Below are positions 1 through 6,663 of a stretch of DNA of 6,663 bases, one piece after another (positions within the stretch are counted from its first letter, which is position 1; each line of letters opens with the position of its first letter). The stretch is taken from positions 1 to 6,663 of the IMG/VR virus record IMGVR_UViG_2648501669_000009; one strand, given 5' to 3'. The notes under the pieces are model-generated. The model was not told the DNA's origin and made no database searches. It saw nothing but the letters and a program-made list of their open reading frames with translations. Made by a program: the position numbers and the translations under genes. This DNA comes from a virus (Duplodnaviria; Heunggongvirae; Uroviricota; Caudoviricetes).

Positions 1-191
1 TTGTGCAGTGTGTTGAACGACGCCCATACCACGTCGTTATACAATTCAATAACTGGCTCAATTATTTTCCCGATTGCCCAGACAAAAATTAGAGGGGATA
101 TCGGTATCATTAACACGATAAACAGAATGAGAAACAGAAATTCTGTTGTTCTACTCTTTCGTGGATATTTTTTTCTGAATAATGTGACCAT
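1..191 (-). CDS. Partial CDS (first 63 codons, continues past window start): predicted small membrane protein
   Basis: Reverse-complementing 1-191 gives ATG at 191-189 and an open frame to position 1: MVTLFRKKYPRKSRTTEFLFLILFIVLMIPISPLIFVWAIGKIIEPVIELYNDVVWASFNTLH. It has a basic N-terminus followed by about 25 hydrophobic residues (one likely TM helix). It is absent from the ORF track because no stop lies in the window. AGGAGG (minus, 219-214) sits upstream, separated from the ATG by a GC hairpin. The start is uncertain (an ATG at 110 is also in frame). Confidence 0.4.
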   Translation of the reverse strand, partial: MVTLFRKKYPRKSRTTEFLFLILFIVLMIPISPLIFVWAIGKIIEPVIELYNDVVWASFNTLH

Positions 192-197
192 TCATTA

Positions 198-219
198 CCG
201 CCCTTTCGGGCGGCCTCCT
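198..219 (-). promoter_or_regulatory. Shine-Dalgarno AGGAGG plus a 6-bp GC stem with GAAA loop placed between the SD and the ATG at 191
   Basis: Plus strand 198-213 is ccgccctttcgggcgg (minus-strand RNA CCGCCC-GAAA-GGGCGG) and plus 214-219 is cctcct (minus AGGAGG). The linear SD-to-AUG distance is 22 nt, but about 6 nt if the hairpin folds. Confidence 0.35.
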
Positions 220-253
220 GATGTTTTGAGGGTGCAGGAATCCCTCCGGTTAA

Positions 254-280
254 GGATTTAATAAAAATCACTTCTGATTT
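254..280 (-). terminator. Weak hairpin with U-rich tail downstream of the 319-630 gene (possible partial terminator)
   Basis: Plus 265-280 is aaatca-cttc-tgattt, a perfect 6-bp inverted repeat with a 4-nt loop. On the minus strand it is followed by UUAUUAAAUCC. The stem is A/U-rich, so termination would be weak. Confidence 0.25.
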
Positions 281-318
281 AAATTTTCAGTGTTTTGTTG
301 CCAGGTGATTTATCGCCT

Positions 319-630
319 TTACGCTTCAGCCTTATTTCTCAGCCATACACAAACAGGACCATCTTCAGTGTCATGAATGGAACCAATGAACCAGCCATCG
401 CCCTCTGGTCGTTCCGGTTCCCATGCTGAAATATCAGGGCCATCTGCGTCCAGGTTAAAATCATCTTCATCCATAGTGCAGATAGTCCACTGAAGATTAT
501 TTGCCTCCATCCACGCGTTAAATTCCTCTGTGGAAATATATTCACGACCTGCGCAAAACTTTTCATACTCAGGATGTGTCCAGCAGCCATATTCATCACG
601 TACTACTGGTATTTCTTTAATTTCATTCAT
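319..630 (-). CDS. Hypothetical acidic protein, 103 aa (phage accessory; family not recognised)
   Basis: ORF MNEIKEIPVVRDEY...VWLRNKAEA. Its ATG at 630 overlaps the upstream stop in an ATGAATGA arrangement, with GGGAGA about 6 nt upstream. Very acidic and Trp-rich. Confidence 0.7.
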   Translation of the reverse strand: MNEIKEIPVVRDEYGCWTHPEYEKFCAGREYISTEEFNAWMEANNLQWTICTMDEDDFNLDADGPDISAWEPERPEGDGWFIGSIHDTEDGPVCVWLRNKAEA

Positions 631-877
631 TTCTGTTCTCCCACGTTTTCAGACTTTCACCACAGAACGGACAAAATGAAACCCGCACTGGTGATTTAGA
701 AAATTCACCGGAACGCAACATCACCAAATCAGGGCCGCGAGTTAAACTCTCATTCCAGATTTTGTATATCAGCAGACCTTTTCGCGTCGTGTATTCAGCA
801 TCATGCTCAAGGGATTTTGCCAGTGCCGTACACGGTTCTATCTTGTTGCCATTAATTTGGCATTTTGACTCACTCAC
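623..877 (-). CDS. Hypothetical Cys-containing small protein, 84 aa (putative zinc-binding)
   Basis: The track ORF 623-910 begins at a TTG inside the upstream gene. A GTG at 877-875 is preceded by AGGAGA plus a 6-nt spacer and overlaps the upstream TGA as GTGA, so it is the preferred start. The product (VSESKCQ...FCPFCGESLKTWENRNE) has Cys6, Cys16 and a C-terminal CPFC, a possible split zinc site. Confidence 0.6.
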   Translation of the reverse strand: MSESKCQINGNKIEPCTALAKSLEHDAEYTTRKGLLIYKIWNESLTRGPDLVMLRSGEFSKSPVRVSFCPFCGESLKTWENRNE

Positions 878-1341
878 TGGTTGTCTCCTTTGCGAATCTG
901 TTCCGCACAATGCAACAATGCTTCTGTCACTTCCTTAAGCGTTACAGTATCGGCATCATCCAGTTCTGCAACTTTTGCATGCCTGACAAACGCCGCGCGA
1001 AGCTCGTTAAACGCCACCGCCTGTATATCAGCCAGGAAAGCGTCAGTAGCTGGCGTTTCAGGCTTGAATCCATTTGCATCGCGTGGGCTGATGTCATCGC
1101 TTGTATAAATAAAGCAATCATCCTTAATGAATTTATTTAACCCCACATTCTCCACTGCCAGCGTCGCAAAATTAGCTTCCAGTTCTGCAATGCGTTTGCT
1201 TTGGGCTTCCCGTTCATCCAGCAGTTCCAACACAACCTGAGGTGTGACTTTCATGCGAAATGCCAGCAATTTTTGTGGTGTGGCTGCGATTTTTATTGCT
1301 TCTGCCACATCACGCAGTACCTGGTAATTAATGTTGCTCAC
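874..1341 (-). CDS. Coiled-coil protein, 155 aa, possibly Ead/Ea22-like
   Basis: The track ORF starts at ATG 1368 with no RBS. A GTG at 1341-1339 is preceded by AGGAGG (plus 1348-1353 cctcct) with a 6-nt spacer. The product (VSNINYQVLRDVAEAIK...ELEANFATLAVENVG...) has a predicted coiled-coil N-terminal half. The Ea22 resemblance is from memory only. Confidence 0.65.
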   Translation of the reverse strand: MSNINYQVLRDVAEAIKIAATPQKLLAFRMKVTPQVVLELLDEREAQSKRIAELEANFATLAVENVGLNKFIKDDCFIYTSDDISPRDANGFKPETPATDAFLADIQAVAFNELRAAFVRHAKVAELDDADTVTLKEVTEALLHCAEQIRKGDNQ

Positions 1342-1633
1342 TGGTTGCCTCCTGGAAAATAACTGCATGCCCCAGCTTCTCCGCCAGTGCCAGTTCCGCC
1401 TTAGCGCCTGCTGACCGCTGCCAGCCTTTCAGCATGTAAATCGCATCCACACAACGAATCATTGCCATGCAAATATCCATGTAGTGTGGCTGTGTCAGTC
1501 CGTCCGGAAGTACTGCCGGGTTTAAGACTGTATGCCCTTCCCGTTTCAGTTCCTCTTCCGCCTTGTGAAACGCCTCACGGTTGAAATTTTCATATCCCGT
1601 CATTGGACCGGCGATATAAACCCTCACCCTCAC
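1328..1633 (-). CDS. DUF4406-type protein (nucleoside 2-deoxyribosyltransferase-like fold), 101 aa
   Basis: The N-terminus MRVRVYIAGPMTGYENFN matches the YIAGPMTG signature I associate with the DUF4406 family. GTG start at 1633 with AGGAGG 8 nt upstream; it overlaps the upstream stop as GTGA. Confidence 0.8.
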   Translation of the reverse strand: MRVRVYIAGPMTGYENFNREAFHKAEEELKREGHTVLNPAVLPDGLTQPHYMDICMAMIRCVDAIYMLKGWQRSAGAKAELALAEKLGHAVIFQEATSEQH

Positions 1634-1947
1634 TCCTGTATCCTCCTGTCGAAATAAACATAGTTATTCACCGTGCGCAGCGGCATTTCGAGTTTTTCCG
1701 CTATCTCGCGACGAGAAATACCCTGCTCATGTAGCTTTCGTATCAGCTCAACACTGCTCCAGGGGATTTTTACCGACTGATGAAAATCACCTCGCAATAT
1801 CAGACTGATACCCAGTTCCCGCGCTTTTGTTCTTACTGCCACCTCCGTGCGACCAGTCAGTTTCCCGATATCTTTCACCCGCATGGTGCCAGCACACTGC
1901 CGGAGTATCAGAATTTCAGCCCTGCACCACTTCTTCCAGTTGCTCAC
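1630..1947 (-). CDS. Small DNA-binding protein with helix-turn-helix motifs, 105 aa (alternative start ATG 1884 gives 84 aa)
   Basis: The track ORF 1630-2034 overlaps the upstream gene by 80 nt. A GTG at 1947-1945 lies 5 nt after the upstream TAA and shares the GTGAGCAAC start context of the gene at 1341. HTH-like segments: GKLTGRTEVAVRTKARELGI and ISRREIAEKLEMPLRTVNNYV (NinH-like pattern). The start is not certain. Confidence 0.55.
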   Translation of the reverse strand: MSNWKKWCRAEILILRQCAGTMRVKDIGKLTGRTEVAVRTKARELGISLILRGDFHQSVKIPWSSVELIRKLHEQGISRREIAEKLEMPLRTVNNYVYFDRRIQE

Positions 1948-1952
1948 TGCTG

Positions 1953-2693
1953 TTACTCTCTGGTGGCAGTAATCTGTCGGAGAATATCCCGGTACTTGTT
2001 CAGCTCCCGCAGCGCGGCACAGACTCGCTCCCATTTCCGGATATCACTTTTCGCCCGACGCAGCTCGCGGTTTGCCTGTCGCAGCGATGGCAGAACCAGA
2101 TTATCCACTCGCTTCTCAAGCGGCTGCACAATGTCTGCCACAGTTTCTGTTTTAATATCTTCCTGTGTTGCAGCTTCCTGTACTGGTAACGCAACACATG
2201 CAGGCTGAGGAAAGGCTTTACCATCAGTTTCCGCTACCGATGCCGCTTTCGGCTCTGCTGGTAAATTACCGCCCGGCATGCAGTAGCGAAATTTACCGTT
2301 CTGGTTTACGCGTGCCAGCCGCCCCGTTGCGGTTACTACCGCCAGCGTGGAAGCAACCTTGCGAGTGCTGACACCGAACTTACCCGCCAGTTCCTCACAC
2401 GTTTTAGCTCCCTCCTGACCGATAAACTCAATCATCATGTCAGCGGTAACTTTTCGTTCGACCTCCCTGGTTAGCACATCCTGTACTTCAGATTGTGCTG
2501 GCTGCTCTTCGGCTACCCCTGATTCACCTTCGCCAGCCACACGCCAGGTGTATACGCTTTTATCAACGAAGCCAGCCTTTTTCAGTTCCCACAGCTCGTT
2601 CAGTACTTCTTCACGACTGATATCAAGTCGCGCAGCCAGCTCTACCGACGTGGCTTTTCCCATCGCTTTCAGTGCGTCAAAAACAGTCTCCAT
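1953..2693 (-). CDS. Tandem winged-helix-like protein with C-terminal coiled coil, 246 aa (phage early protein, function unknown)
   Basis: The track start (2744) overlaps the DnaC-like gene. The internal ATG at 2693-2691 has GGGAGG 8 nt upstream and sits 22 nt after the DnaC-like stop. Two similar segments ([30 protein letters not shown] and [34 protein letters not shown]) precede a basic, heptad-like C-terminus. Confidence 0.75.
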
Positions 2694-2715
2694 TAAAATT
2701 TCCTCCCGGTAAAAA

Positions 2716-3462
2716 TTACTTCTCAATACCTGGCTGACCAACATTCGGGCGCCAGCTCTCCCAGTTAAAATTCACCCATCGCCCGCCGTTCATGGTCATG
2801 CGATCCATAATCCGCTCGCCGAGCAATGTTTTCATGGCCTCATAGTTCAGGTTTGTCAGCATTCCCACGCTGCGCATCGACGCTGTCCGGCGATCAACAA
2901 TCTGGTGCAGTACCACCTGCTCGTTTTTCGTCTCGCGCTGAATGCCAATTTCATCAAGAACCAGCAGATCCACTTCGCACAGTTCCCGCAAAAATTTTTC
3001 GCCTGATTGCCCGTCGTCATAGCTGGCGTGTAGAGCACTCATAACATCAGCCACGGTAACCACAATCACTGTCTGGCCATCTTTCAGCAGGCGATTCCCG
3101 ATAGCCGCCGCTAAGTGGTTTTTCCCGGTACCAGGTTTTCCGCTGAATGCGAAATTTGTGCATCCGGTCATCAGTTCATCGGCGATGGATTTCACCTGGC
3201 TCAACGCGTATCGCTGGCCGTCATTCTGCACCTGGTAATTCGCAAACGAGCACTTGCGGTGCAACGGCTGGATGCCGGAGCGATTCAGAATTTTTTCCAC
3301 CCGCAACTGACGATTCTGGCGGTTGATCTCCTCGCAACGCTTCTGGCCTTCTGCAAGTTGCCACTCGCGCCACTCGTCCACTGTTCGGTATGGCGCGGTT
3401 ACATGCTGCGGAGCCAGCTTACGGATGCGTTCAAGAACACCGCCTGTCGCAATATTTTTCAT
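2716..3462 (-). CDS. DnaC-like AAA+ helicase loader (lambda P functional analogue; YdaV-type replication protein)
   Basis: Walker [16 protein letters not shown] and Walker B LLVLDEIG, 248 aa. The ATG at 3462 follows the O-like stop by 6 nt, with a GGGGG SD. Confidence 0.9.
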
Positions 3463-3468
3463 GCTTCG

Positions 3469-4416
3469 TTACCCCCTGAATCCCGGCGGAATTTCGGCGT
3501 CCGGCTCGGAAATATGATTCACGCAACGCTGTACAGGCGAACGCCCCAGACGAATAACCAGCTCATCCCATTTTTCGCGAAGCTTTGACGGGCTCATGAC
3601 GTTTTTTACCCAGAATGGATCCCGCTGTGCCCGACCAAACATTTCGCAAATTTGCCTGTGAGTTCTGCCATCAAGCATCCGCATTGTGCGCACGTCATTG
3701 GCCCATGCAGTCCAGTTGGGTTCTTTCGGTCGCATGATTTCGCCATCATCGCTGGCAGCCTGCTCGTAAAGACTCACGATTCGTCCCCAGATCCACTGCG
3801 CACACGCCAAATCTTCCTGGCTGCCCCACTGGCGTTTTTTCGCACTGAACACAACCGCGTCAGGGTGTCGGGTTAAAAAATCCTGTTCAGCCGTCTGCGG
3901 GTCCGGTTGCGAAGCGTCCGGACGAAAAGATCTTTTATCTGACGGATCAGGTTTTAATACTGACGGATCGGGGCCAACCATCGCCCCCCTAACCGGATGT
4001 TTTTTATCAACGGTTGATCCATCAAAATTTGAGGGGTCAACCGTTGAGGGGTCAATATTTGACGGGTCATTTTTTACCGGGTTAATTTTTCTTTTCGGTT
4101 TATATGCCTCACGCGCCGCCGCTGCTGCTGCTTCGAGTTTTTCCACATTAAGACGGTAGATATTGCTTTCATTACGCCCACCGACCTTACGTTCTTCCTT
4201 CGTCAGCCAGCCGTTCTTTTCCAGTTCTGCTATCGCAGCTTTAACCGTTGATTCACTCTTTGCCCCAATCTGACGACGAATGGTCTCCACTGCAGGCCAT
4301 GACACACCTTCGTCATTGCTGTAATCTGCAAGGCGAGCCATTACTGCCACCCTGGATAAGATCATGCCGGTGAAGGCGCACCCTTCCCAGACAAGACCAT
4401 GAAGCTTGCTGCTCAT
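3469..4416 (-). CDS. Phage replication initiation protein (lambda O-like: N-terminal winged-helix DNA-binding domain, repeat/poly-Ala linker, C-terminal domain)
   Basis: 315 aa. The N-terminal domain is HTH-like (VSWPAVETIRRQIGAKSESTVKAAIAELEKNGWL). The central region encodes EAAAAAARE and DPS repeats (DPSNIDPSTVDPSNFDGSTVD) that coincide with DNA iterons. It sits immediately upstream of the DnaC-like gene. GGAG SD 7 nt before ATG 4416. Confidence 0.85.
   Translation of the reverse strand: MSSKLHGLVWEGCAFTGMILSRVAVMARLADYSNDEGVSWPAVETIRRQIGAKSESTVKAAIAELEKNGWLTKEERKVGGRNESNIYRLNVEKLEAAAAAAREAYKPKRKINPVKNDPSNIDPSTVDPSNFDGSTVDKKHPVRGAMVGPDPSVLKPDPSDKRSFRPDASQPDPQTAEQDFLTRHPDAVVFSAKKRQWGSQEDLACAQWIWGRIVSLYEQAASDDGEIMRPKEPNWTAWANDVRTMRMLDGRTHRQICEMFGRAQRDPFWVKNVMSPSKLREKWDELVIRLGRSPVQRCVNHISEPDAEIPPGFRG
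3940..4074. repeat. Iteron-like direct repeats (core TGA[C/G]GG[A/G]TCA, at least 5 copies) inside the O-like gene, followed by an AT-rich tract: putative prophage replication origin
   Basis: Copies at 3940-3949 tgacggatca, 3961-3970 tgacggatcg, 4030-4039 tgaggggtca, 4045-4054 tgaggggtca and 4060-4069 tgacgggtca, the last three as tandem 15-bp units. Inverted repeats tcaacggttga (4008-4018) and tcaaccgttga (4037-4047). AT-rich tract about 4069-4105. Confidence 0.6.
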
Positions 4417-4440
4417 AAAAAAACTCCGAACACCGTGCTT

Positions 4441-4866
4441 TTAGTGCATCACCAAGGCATTTCCCGCCGGACCACCACGATTCATCTGATTGAAACCAGC
4501 GATCGCCACTGCGACAAAATCATCAGCGTCTCTCACCAGTCGTTCCCGCGTCTCCACCAGCTCCCGAAACCAGGCTGAACTGTGGCTGCGCATTCGGGCC
4601 ACCAGCAGAGGAGGCATTGCTTTTTCGATCGCTGGTAACAACGCCTGAATTTTTTTAACCGCATCAGGGGTGTCTTTCTCCACCCAGCGGAAAATTTTCT
4701 GAGTATTGCGAGCCAGGGCTTCCGGATGGCTGTCGTCATATAATTCCGGGAACGTCATACCCAGCTCAAAATAAGCCCGGGTTATTTCAGCTGCCGGAAC
4801 TTTTTCACCGTCCGGATGCGCCCAGGCATTCATCGCCATGCGGATGTGTTCATGCTTGATTTTCAT
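4441..4866 (-). CDS. ydaT: YdaT-family protein (CII-like regulator of Rac/CP-933P-type prophages), 141 aa
   Basis: N-terminus MKIKHEHI. Its ATG overlaps the ydaS-like stop as ATGA (4866-4863). Second gene of the rightward-early-type operon, directly before the O-like gene. Confidence 0.8.
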   Translation of the reverse strand: MKIKHEHIRMAMNAWAHPDGEKVPAAEITRAYFELGMTFPELYDDSHPEALARNTQKIFRWVEKDTPDAVKKIQALLPAIEKAMPPLLVARMRSHSSAWFRELVETRERLVRDADDFVAVAIAGFNQMNRGGPAGNALVMH

Positions 4867-5165
4867 GAATCAACTCCATCAGATAAGCATGCACTACAAT
4901 CACCTTCAGCATGAACTACATGTGTTTGCCCCAAACGAATGCCGCTCGCATACTCAGGCCAAATAAGCTCCCAATCATGGGGTCGTAGCTCCGCCCTACT
5001 TACTTGGCCTTCCGTCGCAGATTCGATCATAAGGGCGCGGGTTGGAGATATAGCTGCTCGTCCAGACGCCATTTGCGATAAGTAAGATGGCGATACACCA
5101 AGTCTGGCCGCGAATTTCTTAGCATCACCAACCCTCAATGATTTAATAAACTCTTTTAATGTCAT
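4863..5165 (-). CDS. ydaS: YdaS-family Cro-like HTH regulator, 100 aa
   Basis: HTH DAKKFAARLGVSPSYLSQMASGRAAISPTRALMIESAT. First gene transcribed divergently from the repressor gene. GAGGAAGG SD before ATG 5165. Confidence 0.8.
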   Translation of the reverse strand: MTLKEFIKSLRVGDAKKFAARLGVSPSYLSQMASGRAAISPTRALMIESATEGQVSRAELRPHDWELIWPEYASGIRLGQTHVVHAEGDCSACLSDGVDS

Positions 5166-5175
5166 ACCTTCCTCG

Positions 5176-5251
5176 GTTTAGTGTTTTTTTGTGAGTTTAG
5201 TGTTTAATAAACCATTAAGTCAAGTATTTGCTTGTTTAGTGATTACTAAAG
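5176..5251. promoter_or_regulatory. OR-like operator cluster: three 18-bp sites each starting GTTTAGTG
   Basis: Sites at 5176-5193 gtttagtgtttttttgtg, 5195-5212 gtttagtgtttaataaac (GTTTA-N8-TAAAC dyad) and 5234-5251 gtttagtgattactaaag, all in the 97-bp interval between the divergent ydaS-like and repressor genes. Confidence 0.5.
5194..5223 (-). promoter_or_regulatory. PR-like sigma70 promoter for the ydaS-ydaT-O-DnaC operon
   Basis: Minus-strand -35 TTGACT (plus 5218-5223), 18-nt spacer, -10 TAAACT (plus 5194-5199). The operator at 5195-5212 covers the spacer and -10. Confidence 0.4.
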
Positions 5252-5256
5252 ATAAT
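5228..5256 (+). promoter_or_regulatory. PRM-like promoter for the repressor operon; predicted leaderless mRNA
   Basis: -35 TTGCTT (5228-5233), 17-nt spacer, -10 GATAAT (5251-5256). The ATG at 5263 lies 6 nt after the -10 with no SD, so the transcript would start at or next to the start codon. Confidence 0.45.
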
Positions 5257-5262
5257 TACCGC

Positions 5263-5634
5263 ATGCAAAAAAAAGAAATTCGCCGTTTACGTCTCAAGGA
5301 GTGGTTTAAAGATAAAACTCTGCCACCCAAAGAGAAGAGCTACCTATCTCAACTAATGAGTGGGAGGGCCTCGTTTGGAGAAAAGGCTGCCAGAAGAATA
5401 GAGCAAACATACGGGATGCCGGAAGGGTATCTGGATGCGGAATACGCAGAACAACCGGAAGTTTCTCCACCACATGCAGGGTTAACGTCTAATCAACTGG
5501 AATTATTGCAGATTTTTTCAGCCTTCCCTGAGGATGAGCAACGCCAGATAATCAGCGAGTTAAAGCAGAAAAAAGAATCAATGGAAGATCTCATAGCGAG
5601 ATGGATTGCGGCGCAAAAATGCCGCCGCGCCTGA
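5263..5634 (+). CDS. paaR2: XRE-family HTH repressor (CI-like prophage repressor; PaaR2-type regulator of a three-gene TA operon), 123 aa
   Basis: The track ORF begins at GTG 5191, only 25 nt from the divergent gene. The ATG at 5263 leaves room for both promoters. HTH KSYLSQLMSGRASFGEKAARRIEQTYGMPEGYLD. Divergent from the Cro-like gene and followed by an antitoxin-toxin pair. Confidence 0.7.
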   Translation: MQKKEIRRLRLKEWFKDKTLPPKEKSYLSQLMSGRASFGEKAARRIEQTYGMPEGYLDAEYAEQPEVSPPHAGLTSNQLELLQIFSAFPEDEQRQIISELKQKKESMEDLIARWIAAQKCRRA

Positions 5635-5654
5635 GTTATAAAACCGGAGGAAAC

Positions 5655-5846
5655 ATGAATAGAGCCCTTTCACCAATGGTTTCTGAATTTGAAACCATTG
5701 AACAAGAAAACAGTTACAACGAATGGCTGCGTGCGAAAGTAGCAACGAGCCTTGCAGATCCGCGCCCAGCAATTCCCCATGACGAAGTTGAGCGCAGAAT
5801 GGCAGAACGCTTTGCTAAAATGCGCAAGGAACGGAGCAAGCAGTAA
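5655..5846 (+). CDS. paaA2: PaaA2-type antitoxin, 63 aa
   Basis: The track ORF starts at ATG 5601 inside the repressor gene. The ATG at 5655 is preceded by GGAGGA (5645-5650). The 63-aa product (MNRALSPMVSEFETIEQENSYNEWLRAKVATSLADPRPAIPHDEVERRMAERFAKMRKERSKQ) matches the length and character I recall for PaaA2. Confidence 0.8.
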   Translation: MNRALSPMVSEFETIEQENSYNEWLRAKVATSLADPRPAIPHDEVERRMAERFAKMRKERSKQ

Positions 5847-5847
5847 A

Positions 5848-6126
5848 ATGTTACCCGTGTTATGGCTTGAAAGCGCAGATACCGACCTAGATGATATAGC
5901 TAGCTATATTGCTCGTTTCGACATAGATGCGGCTGAACGCTTATGGCAGCGATTAAGGGGTTGTGTGCTGCCGTTATCCGAACATCCGTATTTATACCCA
6001 CCAAGCGACAGAGTACCTGGCTTGCGTGAGATTGTAGCCCACCCTAACTATATAATTCTATACCGCGTAACAACATCAAGCGTTGAAGTAGTAAACGTGA
6101 TCCACGCAAGACGCCAGTTTCCCTAA
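5848..6126 (+). CDS. parE2: ParE-family toxin (ParE2-type), 92 aa
   Basis: ATG 5848 lies 1 nt after the antitoxin TAA (TAAaATG). The product MLPVLWLESADTDLDDIASYIARFDIDAAERLWQRL...ILYRVTTSSVEVVNVIHARRQFP has a ParE/RelE-like layout. The longer track ORF from 5752 is an in-frame upstream extension overlapping the antitoxin. Confidence 0.85.
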   Translation: MLPVLWLESADTDLDDIASYIARFDIDAAERLWQRLRGCVLPLSEHPYLYPPSDRVPGLREIVAHPNYIILYRVTTSSVEVVNVIHARRQFP

Positions 6127-6155
6127 CTTTCACTACCAATAGAAACATAACAACC

Positions 6156-6187
6156 GCAACGACTTTATCAAAAGCGTTGTGTTTGTT
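6156..6187 (+). terminator. Weak putative terminator after the TA operon (tImm-like position)
   Basis: CAACG (6157-6161) pairs with CGTTG (6175-6179) across a 13-nt loop, followed by the U-rich gtttgtt (6181-6187). Short stem, so low confidence. Confidence 0.3.
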
Positions 6188-6197
6188 ACGCTCCGTG

Positions 6198-6238
6198 GTT
6201 TAGTTTTTACTTGACTTAAGTTTAATGTTTATTAAACT
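6198..6238 (+). promoter_or_regulatory. OL-like operator copies plus PL-like promoter for the early-left genes
   Basis: 6220-6237 gtttaatgtttattaaac matches the OR site 5195-5212 at 16 of 18 positions. 6198-6215 gtttagtttttacttgac shares only the left half. -35 TTGACT (6211-6216), 16-nt spacer, -10 TAAACT (6233-6238), the same hexamers as the PR-like promoter. Confidence 0.45.
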
Positions 6239-6417
6239 AAAAATACCAACCCACCCCGCCCCACAGAATGCAGGGCAATACTTCGAGTTACCAGGCAGTG
6301 GTCAGGGGTTAAGTAGCCAGCCCGAGGCGTAAGAACATGACGGCAGGGTTCAACTTTAATAACTATGCAGCAGGTTTTTGTTCCGCTACCCCGGCGTTAA
6401 GGGGAAATGAGGTCAGC

Positions 6418-6573
6418 ATGGATACTATCGATCTTGGCAACAACGAATCTCTGGTGTACGGCGTGTTTCTCAACCAGGACGGTACGTTCACCGCGATGAC
6501 GTATACCAAAAGCAAAACGTTTAAAACCGAATCTGGCGCGCGTCGCTGGCTGGAAAGAAATTCAGGTGAGTGA
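6418..6573 (+). CDS. Small early-left protein, 51 aa (I believe it resembles Rac YdaF, unverified)
   Basis: ATG 6418 with GAGG 5 nt upstream. Product MDTIDLGNNESLVYGVFLNQDGTFTAMTYTKSKTFKTESGARRWLERNSGE. The track start at 6337 has no SD and would give 78 aa. Confidence 0.6.
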   Translation: MDTIDLGNNESLVYGVFLNQDGTFTAMTYTKSKTFKTESGARRWLERNSGE

Positions 6574-6574
6574 T

Positions 6575-6663
6575 ATGGATTTCGACACAATCATGGAAAA
6601 GGCTTACGAAGAATACTTCGAAGGCCTTGCCGAAGGCGAAGAAGCTCTCAGCTTCAGTGAGAG
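6575..6663 (+). CDS. Partial CDS (first 29 codons, runs off window): small acidic early-left protein (possibly YdaG-like, unverified)
   Basis: ATG at 6575, 1 nt after the upstream TGA, with AGGTGAG upstream. MDFDTIMEKAYEEYFEGLAEGEEALSFSE... is open to the window end. Confidence 0.5.
   Translation, partial: MDFDTIMEKAYEEYFEGLAEGEEALSFSE

Follow-up and report, generated by a model that had tools for sequence, protein, structure and literature searches.

Putative replication-origin iterons inside the O-like initiator gene of a Rac-like Escherichia coli prophage

The DNA considered here, referred to as the window, is the whole stretch of 6,663 nucleotides (nt) at positions 1 to 6,663 of the IMG/VR virus record IMGVR_UViG_2648501669_000009, and it comes from a Rac-like lambdoid prophage of Escherichia coli, of which it forms the immunity and replication region. 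Its minus strand carries an open reading frame for an O-like replication initiator of 315 amino acids (aa), in the middle of which lies an array of short palindromic repeats. We consider it probable, from the sequence comparisons presented below, that these repeats are the initiator-binding iterons of a prophage replication origin situated inside its own initiator gene, on the plan of ori-lambda. The features of the gene on which the argument depends are the following (bp, base pairs).

3469-4416, minus strand: O-like replication initiator gene, 315 aa (open reading frame; Pfam HTH_36; PHROG 391)
4105-4416, minus strand: N-terminal winged-helix domain, aa 1-104, presumed reader of the iterons (Pfam HTH_36, AlphaFold2)
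3541-3894, minus strand: C-terminal helical domain, aa 175-292, homologue of the lambda O C-terminal domain by sequence
4007-4069: tandem array of putative iterons, four 15-bp units forming a palindromic lattice, coding for DPSNIDPSTVDPSNFDGSTV
3940-3949 (TGACGGATCA) and 3961-3970 (TGACGGATCG): distal pair, read on the gene strand as GATCCGTCA twice and coding for DPS..DPS
3970-3988: GGGGCCAACCATCGCCCCC, a degenerate relic (three mismatches) of the 19-bp perfect palindrome GGGGTCAA-N3-TTGACCCC
4069-4105: AT-rich tract, 75.7% AT, A-rich on the gene strand, coding for aa 104-116 (AYKPKRKINPVKN)
4139-4147, plus strand: exact DnaA box TTWTNCACA (TTTTCCACA), the only exact match in the window
3918-3936: mosaic joint, placed by partial megablast hits over query 1-468

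The repeat lattice and the protein that contains it

A first-pass annotation of the window had described five direct repeats of TGA[C/G]GG[A/G]TCA, three of them as tandem 15-bp units. The exact motif (TGASGGRTCA) occurs at 3940, 4030, 4045 and 4060, four copies against 0.05 expected, a number reached in none of 200 shuffles. Allowing one mismatch adds a direct copy at 3961 (TGACGGATCG) and a minus-strand copy at 4015 (TGATGGATCA), giving six copies against 1.3 expected, again reached in none of 200 shuffles. Four of the five direct repeats are thus exact and the fifth, at 3961, is imperfect, while an inverted sixth copy at 4015 means that the 15-bp tandem array, which is real, has four units (4015, 4030, 4045 and 4060) rather than three. 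Tandem Repeats Finder reported a 15-bp period at 4022-4069 and a 30-bp period at 4007-4069, and this array was the only substantial tandem repeat that it found within the window.

The array can be read on two axes. TGA-N4-TCA units (register B) stand at 15-bp spacing at the four positions just given, and exact TCAA-N3-TTGA dyads (register A) stand at 4007, 4022, 4037 and 4052. These are two registers of one array, a lattice of the form ...TCAA nnn TTGA ssss TCAA nnn TTGA ssss..., with two alternating dyad axes in every 15 bp. The motif originally described is therefore one of two equivalent registers, and the two mutually reverse-complementary 11-mers described with it, which are indeed present at 4007-4017 (TCAACGGTTGA) and 4037-4047 (TCAACCGTTGA), are two of the four TCAA-N3-TTGA dyads.

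Evidence on the register is split. The distal pair, which is the stretch of the linker best conserved in DNA across the family, with invariant alignment columns, fits TGA-N4-TCA, whereas the palindromes of subfamily 3 and an isolated 19-bp palindrome downstream of the array fit TCAA-N3-TTGA. The latter palindrome (GGGGTCAA-N3-TTGACCCC), of which the window keeps only the relic at 3970-3988, is intact in relatives from Erwinia, Mixta and Edwardsiella, and in the most distant relatives CCTCCAGAATCTGGAGG lies on the TCAA-N3-TTGA axis in palindromes of 15-17 bp. On these comparisons the TCAA-N3-TTGA register appears to be supported at least as well as TGA-N4-TCA.

The repeats had also been said to be mirrored as DPS peptide repeats in an interdomain linker, and both statements hold. 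The minus-strand translation reads DPSNIDPSTVDPSNFDGSTVD at aa 117-137 and DPSVLKPDPS at aa 150-159, with the window's own copies in one reading frame and their differences falling at third codon positions. In an AlphaFold2 model built from a 30-sequence alignment, aa 109-174 are predicted to be disordered (predicted local distance difference test score, pLDDT, below 50, about 30) between the folded N- and C-terminal domains.

As a whole the protein matches PHROG 391, 'replication initiation O-like', with E = 2.5e-112. Its C-terminal domain is 37% identical to aa 155-270 of lambda O over 128 aa (BLASTP, E = 5e-26) and also matches phi80 gp15 (BLASTP, E = 6e-27), and judged by these alignments it is a true homologue of lambda O. 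In lambda, the C-terminal domain of O recruits the helicase loader. The N-terminal domain is modelled as four helices, a beta hairpin and a further helix (pLDDT 68-87), and Pfam gives HTH_36 only for it, not Phage_rep_O. Kinship of this domain to the N-terminus of lambda O was rejected, hhalign having found none, and a PDB sequence search and Foldseek returned only generic winged-helix regulators with weak E-values; the weak structural matches are to winged-helix regulators of the MarR/PadR/PerR type. The tail after aa 292 is again predicted to be disordered and ends in EIPPGFRG. Its segment aa 296-315 (3469-3528; ..SEPDAEIPPGFRG) weakly resembles the C-terminus of DnaT (NCBIfam E = 0.006), is common to K-12 YdaU, SfIV gp41 and relatives from Citrobacter and soil despite their differing central domains, and could serve to dock a host replication protein.

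The AT-rich tract, placed by the first-pass annotation at about 4069-4105, is the AT-richest 37 nt of the initiator gene and falls in the top 1.3% of the whole window. It codes for a conserved basic patch, KPKRK. Relatives from Erwinia, Edwardsiella and Morganella keep the basic peptide, yet their corresponding 40 nt are only 35-53% AT. For most relatives, the 36-nt stretch of the gene richest in AT surrounds the distal GATCCGTCA pair, C-terminal to the array, which is also the side seen in lambda. In the window, AT content is 53% in the distal-pair stretch, 52% in the spacer immediately after the tandem array (3976-4006), and 47% in the 40 nt that adjoin the site span, distal pair included, on its C-terminal side. 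Because the basic patch is coded without AT-richness in other genera, a 'reversed layout' with the AT-rich tract on the N-terminal side of the iterons would be a property of this lineage at most, and 4069-4105 is a candidate unwinding element for this lineage only. Therefore, the comparison with ori-lambda made at first pass stands for iterons in the middle of an O-like gene with a lambda-O-type C-terminal domain, but the reversed side of the AT-rich tract is not established.

Other local signals were less informative. The DnaA box at 4139-4147 falls within the codons for NVEKLE, 34 bp past the AT-rich tract. The E. coli alleles keep it exactly, in Morganella and Edwardsiella one position differs, and elsewhere it has disappeared; as a family-wide feature of the origin it is ruled out, being confined to the E. 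coli alleles. A match to the oriC-type 13-mer at 3929-3941 was rejected, as it has two mismatches and belongs to a class that is not enriched (five matches against 3.3 expected). GATC sites occur near the distal pair at 3929, 3945 and 3966; an enrichment of GATC was likewise rejected, since the window has 18 sites against 23.8 expected and the local cluster of four in 91 bp is mostly the repeat itself. In phiP27 (L009) and in the most distant relatives (L021 and L022) the distal pair reads GATCC(A/G)CAAG, the reverse complement of which, TGTGGATC(A/C), fits the DnaA box at 7-8 of 9 positions, whereas GATCCGTCA of the window does not.

Conservation and constraint of the array among relatives

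Our comparison set comprised 20 fetched relatives with N-terminal domains 51-100% identical, namely the phages SfIV, phiP27 and YeP1, three Klebsiella or Escherichia phages, and prophages of Erwinia, Mixta, Morganella, Edwardsiella, Symbiopectobacterium and Citrobacter. The array directly follows the N-terminal domain in all of them except a truncated copy from Edwardsiella hoshinae (L015:1501-1803), a decayed gene that stops after the N-terminal domain (100 aa) and is followed by unrelated DNA, with no array. The number of units ranges from 3 to about 10. E. coli alleles of 305, 310, 315 and 320 aa carry 2, 3, 4 and 5 units, respectively, and some E. coli alleles are without one member of the distal pair. 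In the distant relatives L020-L022 the spacing is 33 bp, and L021 has three 33-bp copies that are 100% identical.

The association between this type of domain and the lattice extends beyond these relatives. A lattice scan of viral contigs gave 119 loci, in 110 of which the array starts 72-103 nt downstream of the end of an N-domain homologue. Two more of the loci (L029 and L115) encode very distant HTH_36 proteins whose C-terminal parts are unrelated; here too the lattice comes immediately behind the HTH_36 domain, and it codes for GSNIE or STIDx repeats. Two unrelated viral contigs, one rich in GC and the other in AT, also have 15-bp TCAA-N3-TTGA lattices of 4-5 units in DNA that appears not to code for protein (L130:7017-7095 and L076:3459-3530), and no adjacent initiator gene was identified at either lattice.

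The half-sites change along with the N-terminal domain. At 71-100% identity of this domain the half-site pattern is TCAA-N3-TTGA, at 55-67% it is TCA(A/G)AATCTGA, and at 51-62% it is CCTCCAGAATCTGGAGG / CCAGAATCTGG. The series thus runs from TCAA through TCAG to CCAG, with the changes symmetric in both half-sites, and the recognition helix shifts in parallel from ..STVK.. through ..STVR.. to ..STVY...

The domain and the repeats also travel together. Many E. coli genes match the window DNA only over 3469-3936 (85-94% identity), and beyond this joint their N-terminal domain is unrelated and their iterons are different. For example, L028 (E. coli Ec-U9-2) has the same C-terminal half, starting at TTTTCGTCCGGA, joined to an unrelated N-terminal domain; at the same place it has about five copies of its own iteron, CATCGGTTCAAAATG, at 23-bp spacing, followed by an A-rich stretch. 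Since L028 and K-12 YdaU each pair another N-terminal domain with other repeats, the DNA-binding domain and the repeats are exchanged as one module. Exchange of such a module is the classical behaviour of lambdoid origin specificity. The sequence at the joint itself (3918-3940), which reads AAAAGATCTTTTCGTCCGGA along the gene, looks like the right end of the AT-rich region in phi80 (AAAAGATCTTCGTCCGAGA) and in lambda (AAAAGATTATTCGTCAGAGA) when compared with L023:545-575 and L026:8765-8790. This likeness, which is short and partly in another reading frame, could reflect a shared recombination joint, an origin element, or chance.

The codons of the array bear on whether it is the DNA or the peptide that is conserved. 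Defining units in the protein as [D/E]-x-S within the linker gave 57 distinct units, in which the Ser codon is TCA in 46 of 57, whereas outside the units these genes use TCA for 44 of 374 Ser codons (Fisher p = 2e-26, a value that overstates independence because tandem units share descent). The codon before this Ser, which specifies 16 different amino acids, has T as its third base in 39 of the 57 units against 16 expected. In an information profile built from 80 distinct units of 20 genes, T-G-A, T-C-A and the A and T next to them score high, and the centres of 4 nt and 3 nt score low. At third codon positions 9 and 15 of the unit the information is 1.17 and 0.86 bits, compared with 0.07-0.38 bits at the other third positions, a pattern that reproduces the dyad. 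Moreover, flipped units (TTGAGGGGTCAA vs. TTGACCCCTCAA) occur within the same arrays and code for EGS instead of DPS. These patterns show that the array is constrained as DNA and not as peptide.

Comparison with known origins and competing explanations

The putative origin resembles ori-lambda in lying mid-gene, between the DNA-binding and the C-terminal domains. The lambda iterons occupy aa 117-145 of O and the window array aa 117-137, both starting at codon 117; ori-lambda has four dyad-symmetric sites, the window four tandem sites and two distal copies; and in each case an A-rich tract that codes for a basic peptide (KEKRK in lambda, KPKRK in the window) stands beside the iterons. An origin in the middle of O made up of iterons and an AT-rich tract is the arrangement described for lambdoid phages (PMC7466680). 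The number of iterons varies in frame in both, with six iterons and 13 extra residues in Stx phages (PMC7466680) and two to five units in the E. coli alleles of the window gene. By contrast, the window site differs in sequence from that of lambda and forms a continuous palindromic lattice, the N-terminal domain is an HTH_36 winged helix that is unrelated or undetectably related, the AT-rich tract is on the N-terminal rather than the C-terminal (right) side, and the partner is a DnaC-like loader and not lambda P.

In phi80, gp15 has four annotated sites at about aa 122-147, and its iterons are mirrored as the peptide repeats FPKTGK/FPKSG just as those of the window are mirrored as DPS. Its C-terminal domain is homologous to that of the window protein, and the sequences near the joint, AAAAGATCTTCGTCCG in phi80 and AAAAGATCTTTTCGTCCG in the window, are very similar. 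However, phi80 gp15 has a lambda-O-type N-terminal domain, a spacing of about 21 bp, an AT-rich stretch on the C-terminal side, and a P-like partner, gp14. In P22, the annotated origin (NC_002371 rep_origin) occupies the corresponding part of the initiator gene, about aa 118-166 of gene 18, and consists of iterons with an AT-rich stretch after them, an instance of the same modular pairing of domain and origin; gp18, with a lambda-type N-terminal domain and a different C-terminal domain, has no significant similarity to the window protein and has as its partner the DnaB-type helicase gp12.

In theta plasmids (pSC101, P1, F, RK2 and R6K), a winged-helix initiator acts on direct repeats beside an AT-rich region; these iterons are non-coding, of about 17-22 bp, and about two helical turns apart. 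The order DnaA box (4139-4147), AT-rich tract, iterons in the window is plasmid-like, but the iterons of the window are coding, and the C-terminal domain of its initiator is of the lambda-O type and not a second winged helix.

The Rac prophage of K-12 (racR-ydaS-ydaT-ydaU-ydaV) has the same gene order as the window, which runs RacR-like, YdaS, YdaT, initiator, DnaC-like YdaV, DUF1627. K-12 YdaU shares the tail ..IPPGFRG with the window initiator and has a mid-gene repeat of its own, AAGCAGATGTTCAA, in four copies unrelated to those of the window; its N-terminal domain is DUF1376 and not HTH_36, and the two initiators are therefore not identical. Rac has been reported to have an active origin, oriJ (PMC3945230). 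The Eru types of Stx phages were also considered, but Eru1 is described as a helicase plus primase-type (Toprim) module (PMC8044961) and is not relevant to the window.

Drawing on established knowledge of O, P and DnaB, and by analogy with lambda, the following sequence of events can be proposed. After derepression, rightward-type transcription from the cro-side promoter would cross the origin, the transcript running leftward through the ydaS-like, ydaT-like, O-like and DnaC-like genes. The initiator would bind the four tandem sites at 4007-4069, and probably also the distal sites at 3940-3970, as dimers on dyad-symmetric sites. The resulting nucleoprotein complex would destabilize an adjacent A+T-rich stretch, either 4069-4105 or the moderately AT-rich 3929-3975, and the lambda-O-type C-terminal domain would recruit DnaB via the phage DnaC-like loader. 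The comparisons show the anatomy of the locus, the homology of the C-terminal domain to lambda O, the constraint on the DNA, the co-variation of sites with the DNA-binding domain and the polymorphism in unit number; binding, the register that is contacted, the site of unwinding and origin activity are points that we infer. As a 15-bp period corresponds to about 1.4 helical turns, adjacent sites point to almost opposite faces of the DNA and sites of the full 19 bp run into one another, and the geometry of the complex is, speculatively, likely to be unlike that of the lambda O-some.

Several points weigh against this interpretation. There is no clearly conserved AT-rich unwinding element, since the 4069-4105 tract is lineage-specific and the C-terminal-side stretch is 53% AT. 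The spacing is 15 bp, compared with 20, 24 and 23 bp in lambda, and full 19-bp sites cannot be filled side by side. The N-terminal domain is without detectable similarity to the lambda O N-terminus (hhalign with the family profile, probability 0.05), and a literature search found no description of the origin of this initiator family. In addition, the prophage may be defective, and shared descent or concerted evolution inflates the codon statistics, a problem that collapsing identical units lessens but does not remove, although the synonymous-site pattern persists across genera and independent lineages.

The spacing invites a different picture of the complex, which we think unlikely although it deserves mention. 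In it, the two-fold-symmetric lattice of 4-bp half-sites every 7-8 bp would let the initiator polymerize as a continuous filament on alternating faces, on either dyad axis and with no lambda-style wrapped O-some; unwinding would be promoter-proximal, in a plasmid-like order, and the number of units would set both origin strength and linker length. The lack of a conserved AT-rich unwinding element adjoining the array, and a 15-bp lattice unlike the roughly two-turn spacing of lambda, would also fit a role for the sites other than that of a start point. The initiator might bind them for autoregulation, as a transcriptional roadblock or for copy control by handcuffing, with the unwinding origin elsewhere in a prophage of which the window spans only 6.7 kb. 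We give this little credence, because in lambda, phi80 and P22 the origin is at exactly this position by experimental or curated annotation, because the array is the only substantial tandem repeat of the window, and because it swaps together with the DNA-binding domain, as lambdoid origin specificity does.

Two further explanations strike us as very improbable. The repeat could be a feature of the protein, a low-complexity D-P-S linker grown by in-frame duplication for length, flexibility or a short linear motif and with no function as DNA, and indeed all copies are in one frame, their differences are at third codon positions and the region is predicted to be disordered. One reading frame is, however, barred anyway because the lattice contains TGA, and it is the synonymous positions of the dyad that are conserved while others drift; the peptide shifts (DPSNI, DxSKS, EPPESGG, GSNIE, STIDx) where the DNA dyad persists, and reverse-complemented units stand together in one array. 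The array could otherwise be the neutral outcome of slippage or unequal crossing-over at a recombination hotspot, the mosaic joint, homogenized by concerted evolution without selection. That only the dyad positions are fixed across genera, with centre and spacer diverging freely, speaks against such neutrality, as do the same lattice in very distant HTH_36 proteins and the symmetric half-site changes that track the DNA-binding domain, even though the unit number varies from 2 to about 10, L021 has its three identical 33-bp copies, and the joint is only 70 bp away.

As single-stranded DNA, 4007-4047 folds into a near-perfect 41-nt hairpin (-19.6 kcal/mol, z = -7.7), and cruciform extrusion or a structure in the mRNA is possible, but the hairpin is not conserved among relatives. 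We regard it as extremely improbable that such a structure of the palindromic array, whether hairpin or cruciform, in mRNA or in single-stranded DNA, is the functional element in place of protein-binding sites. The long hairpin needs units in both orientations and is absent from one-orientation relatives such as L014 and L029, an Rfam search matched no known RNA family, and the hairpin is a by-product of the palindromic lattice. Taken together, these considerations favor initiator-binding iterons of an origin within the initiator gene. So read, the locus adds one more example to a textbook arrangement, its repeats packed more tightly and more symmetrically than those of lambda, and its DNA-binding module and iterons are of a type without annotation in the records that we examined and without description in the papers searched.

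Prophage context and significance

The genes around the initiator are listed here from the toxin-antitoxin pair leftward.

5601-6126, plus strand: PaaA2-ParE toxin-antitoxin pair
5752-6126, plus strand: ParE toxin (E = 1.7e-16)
5601-5846, plus strand: PaaA2-type antitoxin (E = 1.7e-19)
5191-5634, plus strand: RacR/PaaR2-like repressor
4863-5165, minus strand: YdaS/Cro-like gene
4441-4866, minus strand: YdaT gene
2716-3462, minus strand: DnaC-like helicase loader gene, 6 nt downstream of the initiator gene
after the DnaC-like gene, minus strand: DUF1627 and further early genes

The order repressor-antitoxin-toxin at 5191-6126 is the paaR2-paaA2-parE2 arrangement known from an O157:H7 cryptic prophage, and here it is placed at the immunity region. 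The DnaC-like loader matches NCBIfam PRK12377 with 508 bits (cutoff 389) and the DnaC equivalog with E = 7.6e-91, as well as Pfam IstB_IS21 and PHROG 50. The gene that follows the initiator varies within the family, being DnaC-like in the window, L003 and phiP27, DUF977 in L002, L027 and L028, PerC-like in SfIV, and a methyltransferase in 716R3 and P7641. Because of this variation, many initiators of the family must use the host loader.

A 99.5% identical locus is found in strain ETEC1746, in a prophage integrated beside yccA. The initiator gene has matches in 3278 of 5426 complete E. coli genomes, full-length in 1515 of them, and in the fetched genome records it is annotated only as 'helix-turn-helix domain-containing protein', with no origin feature there.

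The textbook picture of lambdoid replication is unchanged by these observations. The initiator family is, however, very common in E. coli, and it also occurs in phages of Shigella, Klebsiella and Yersinia and in prophages of many Enterobacterales. For these elements, a start site together with its specificity determinant would help to predict which cryptic prophages replicate in place after derepression, with consequences such as toxicity and lateral transduction, and which co-resident prophages are incompatible, and it would permit the design of origin-initiator cassettes. The family also offers clean natural data on the co-evolution, within one gene, of a DNA-binding domain and its sites.

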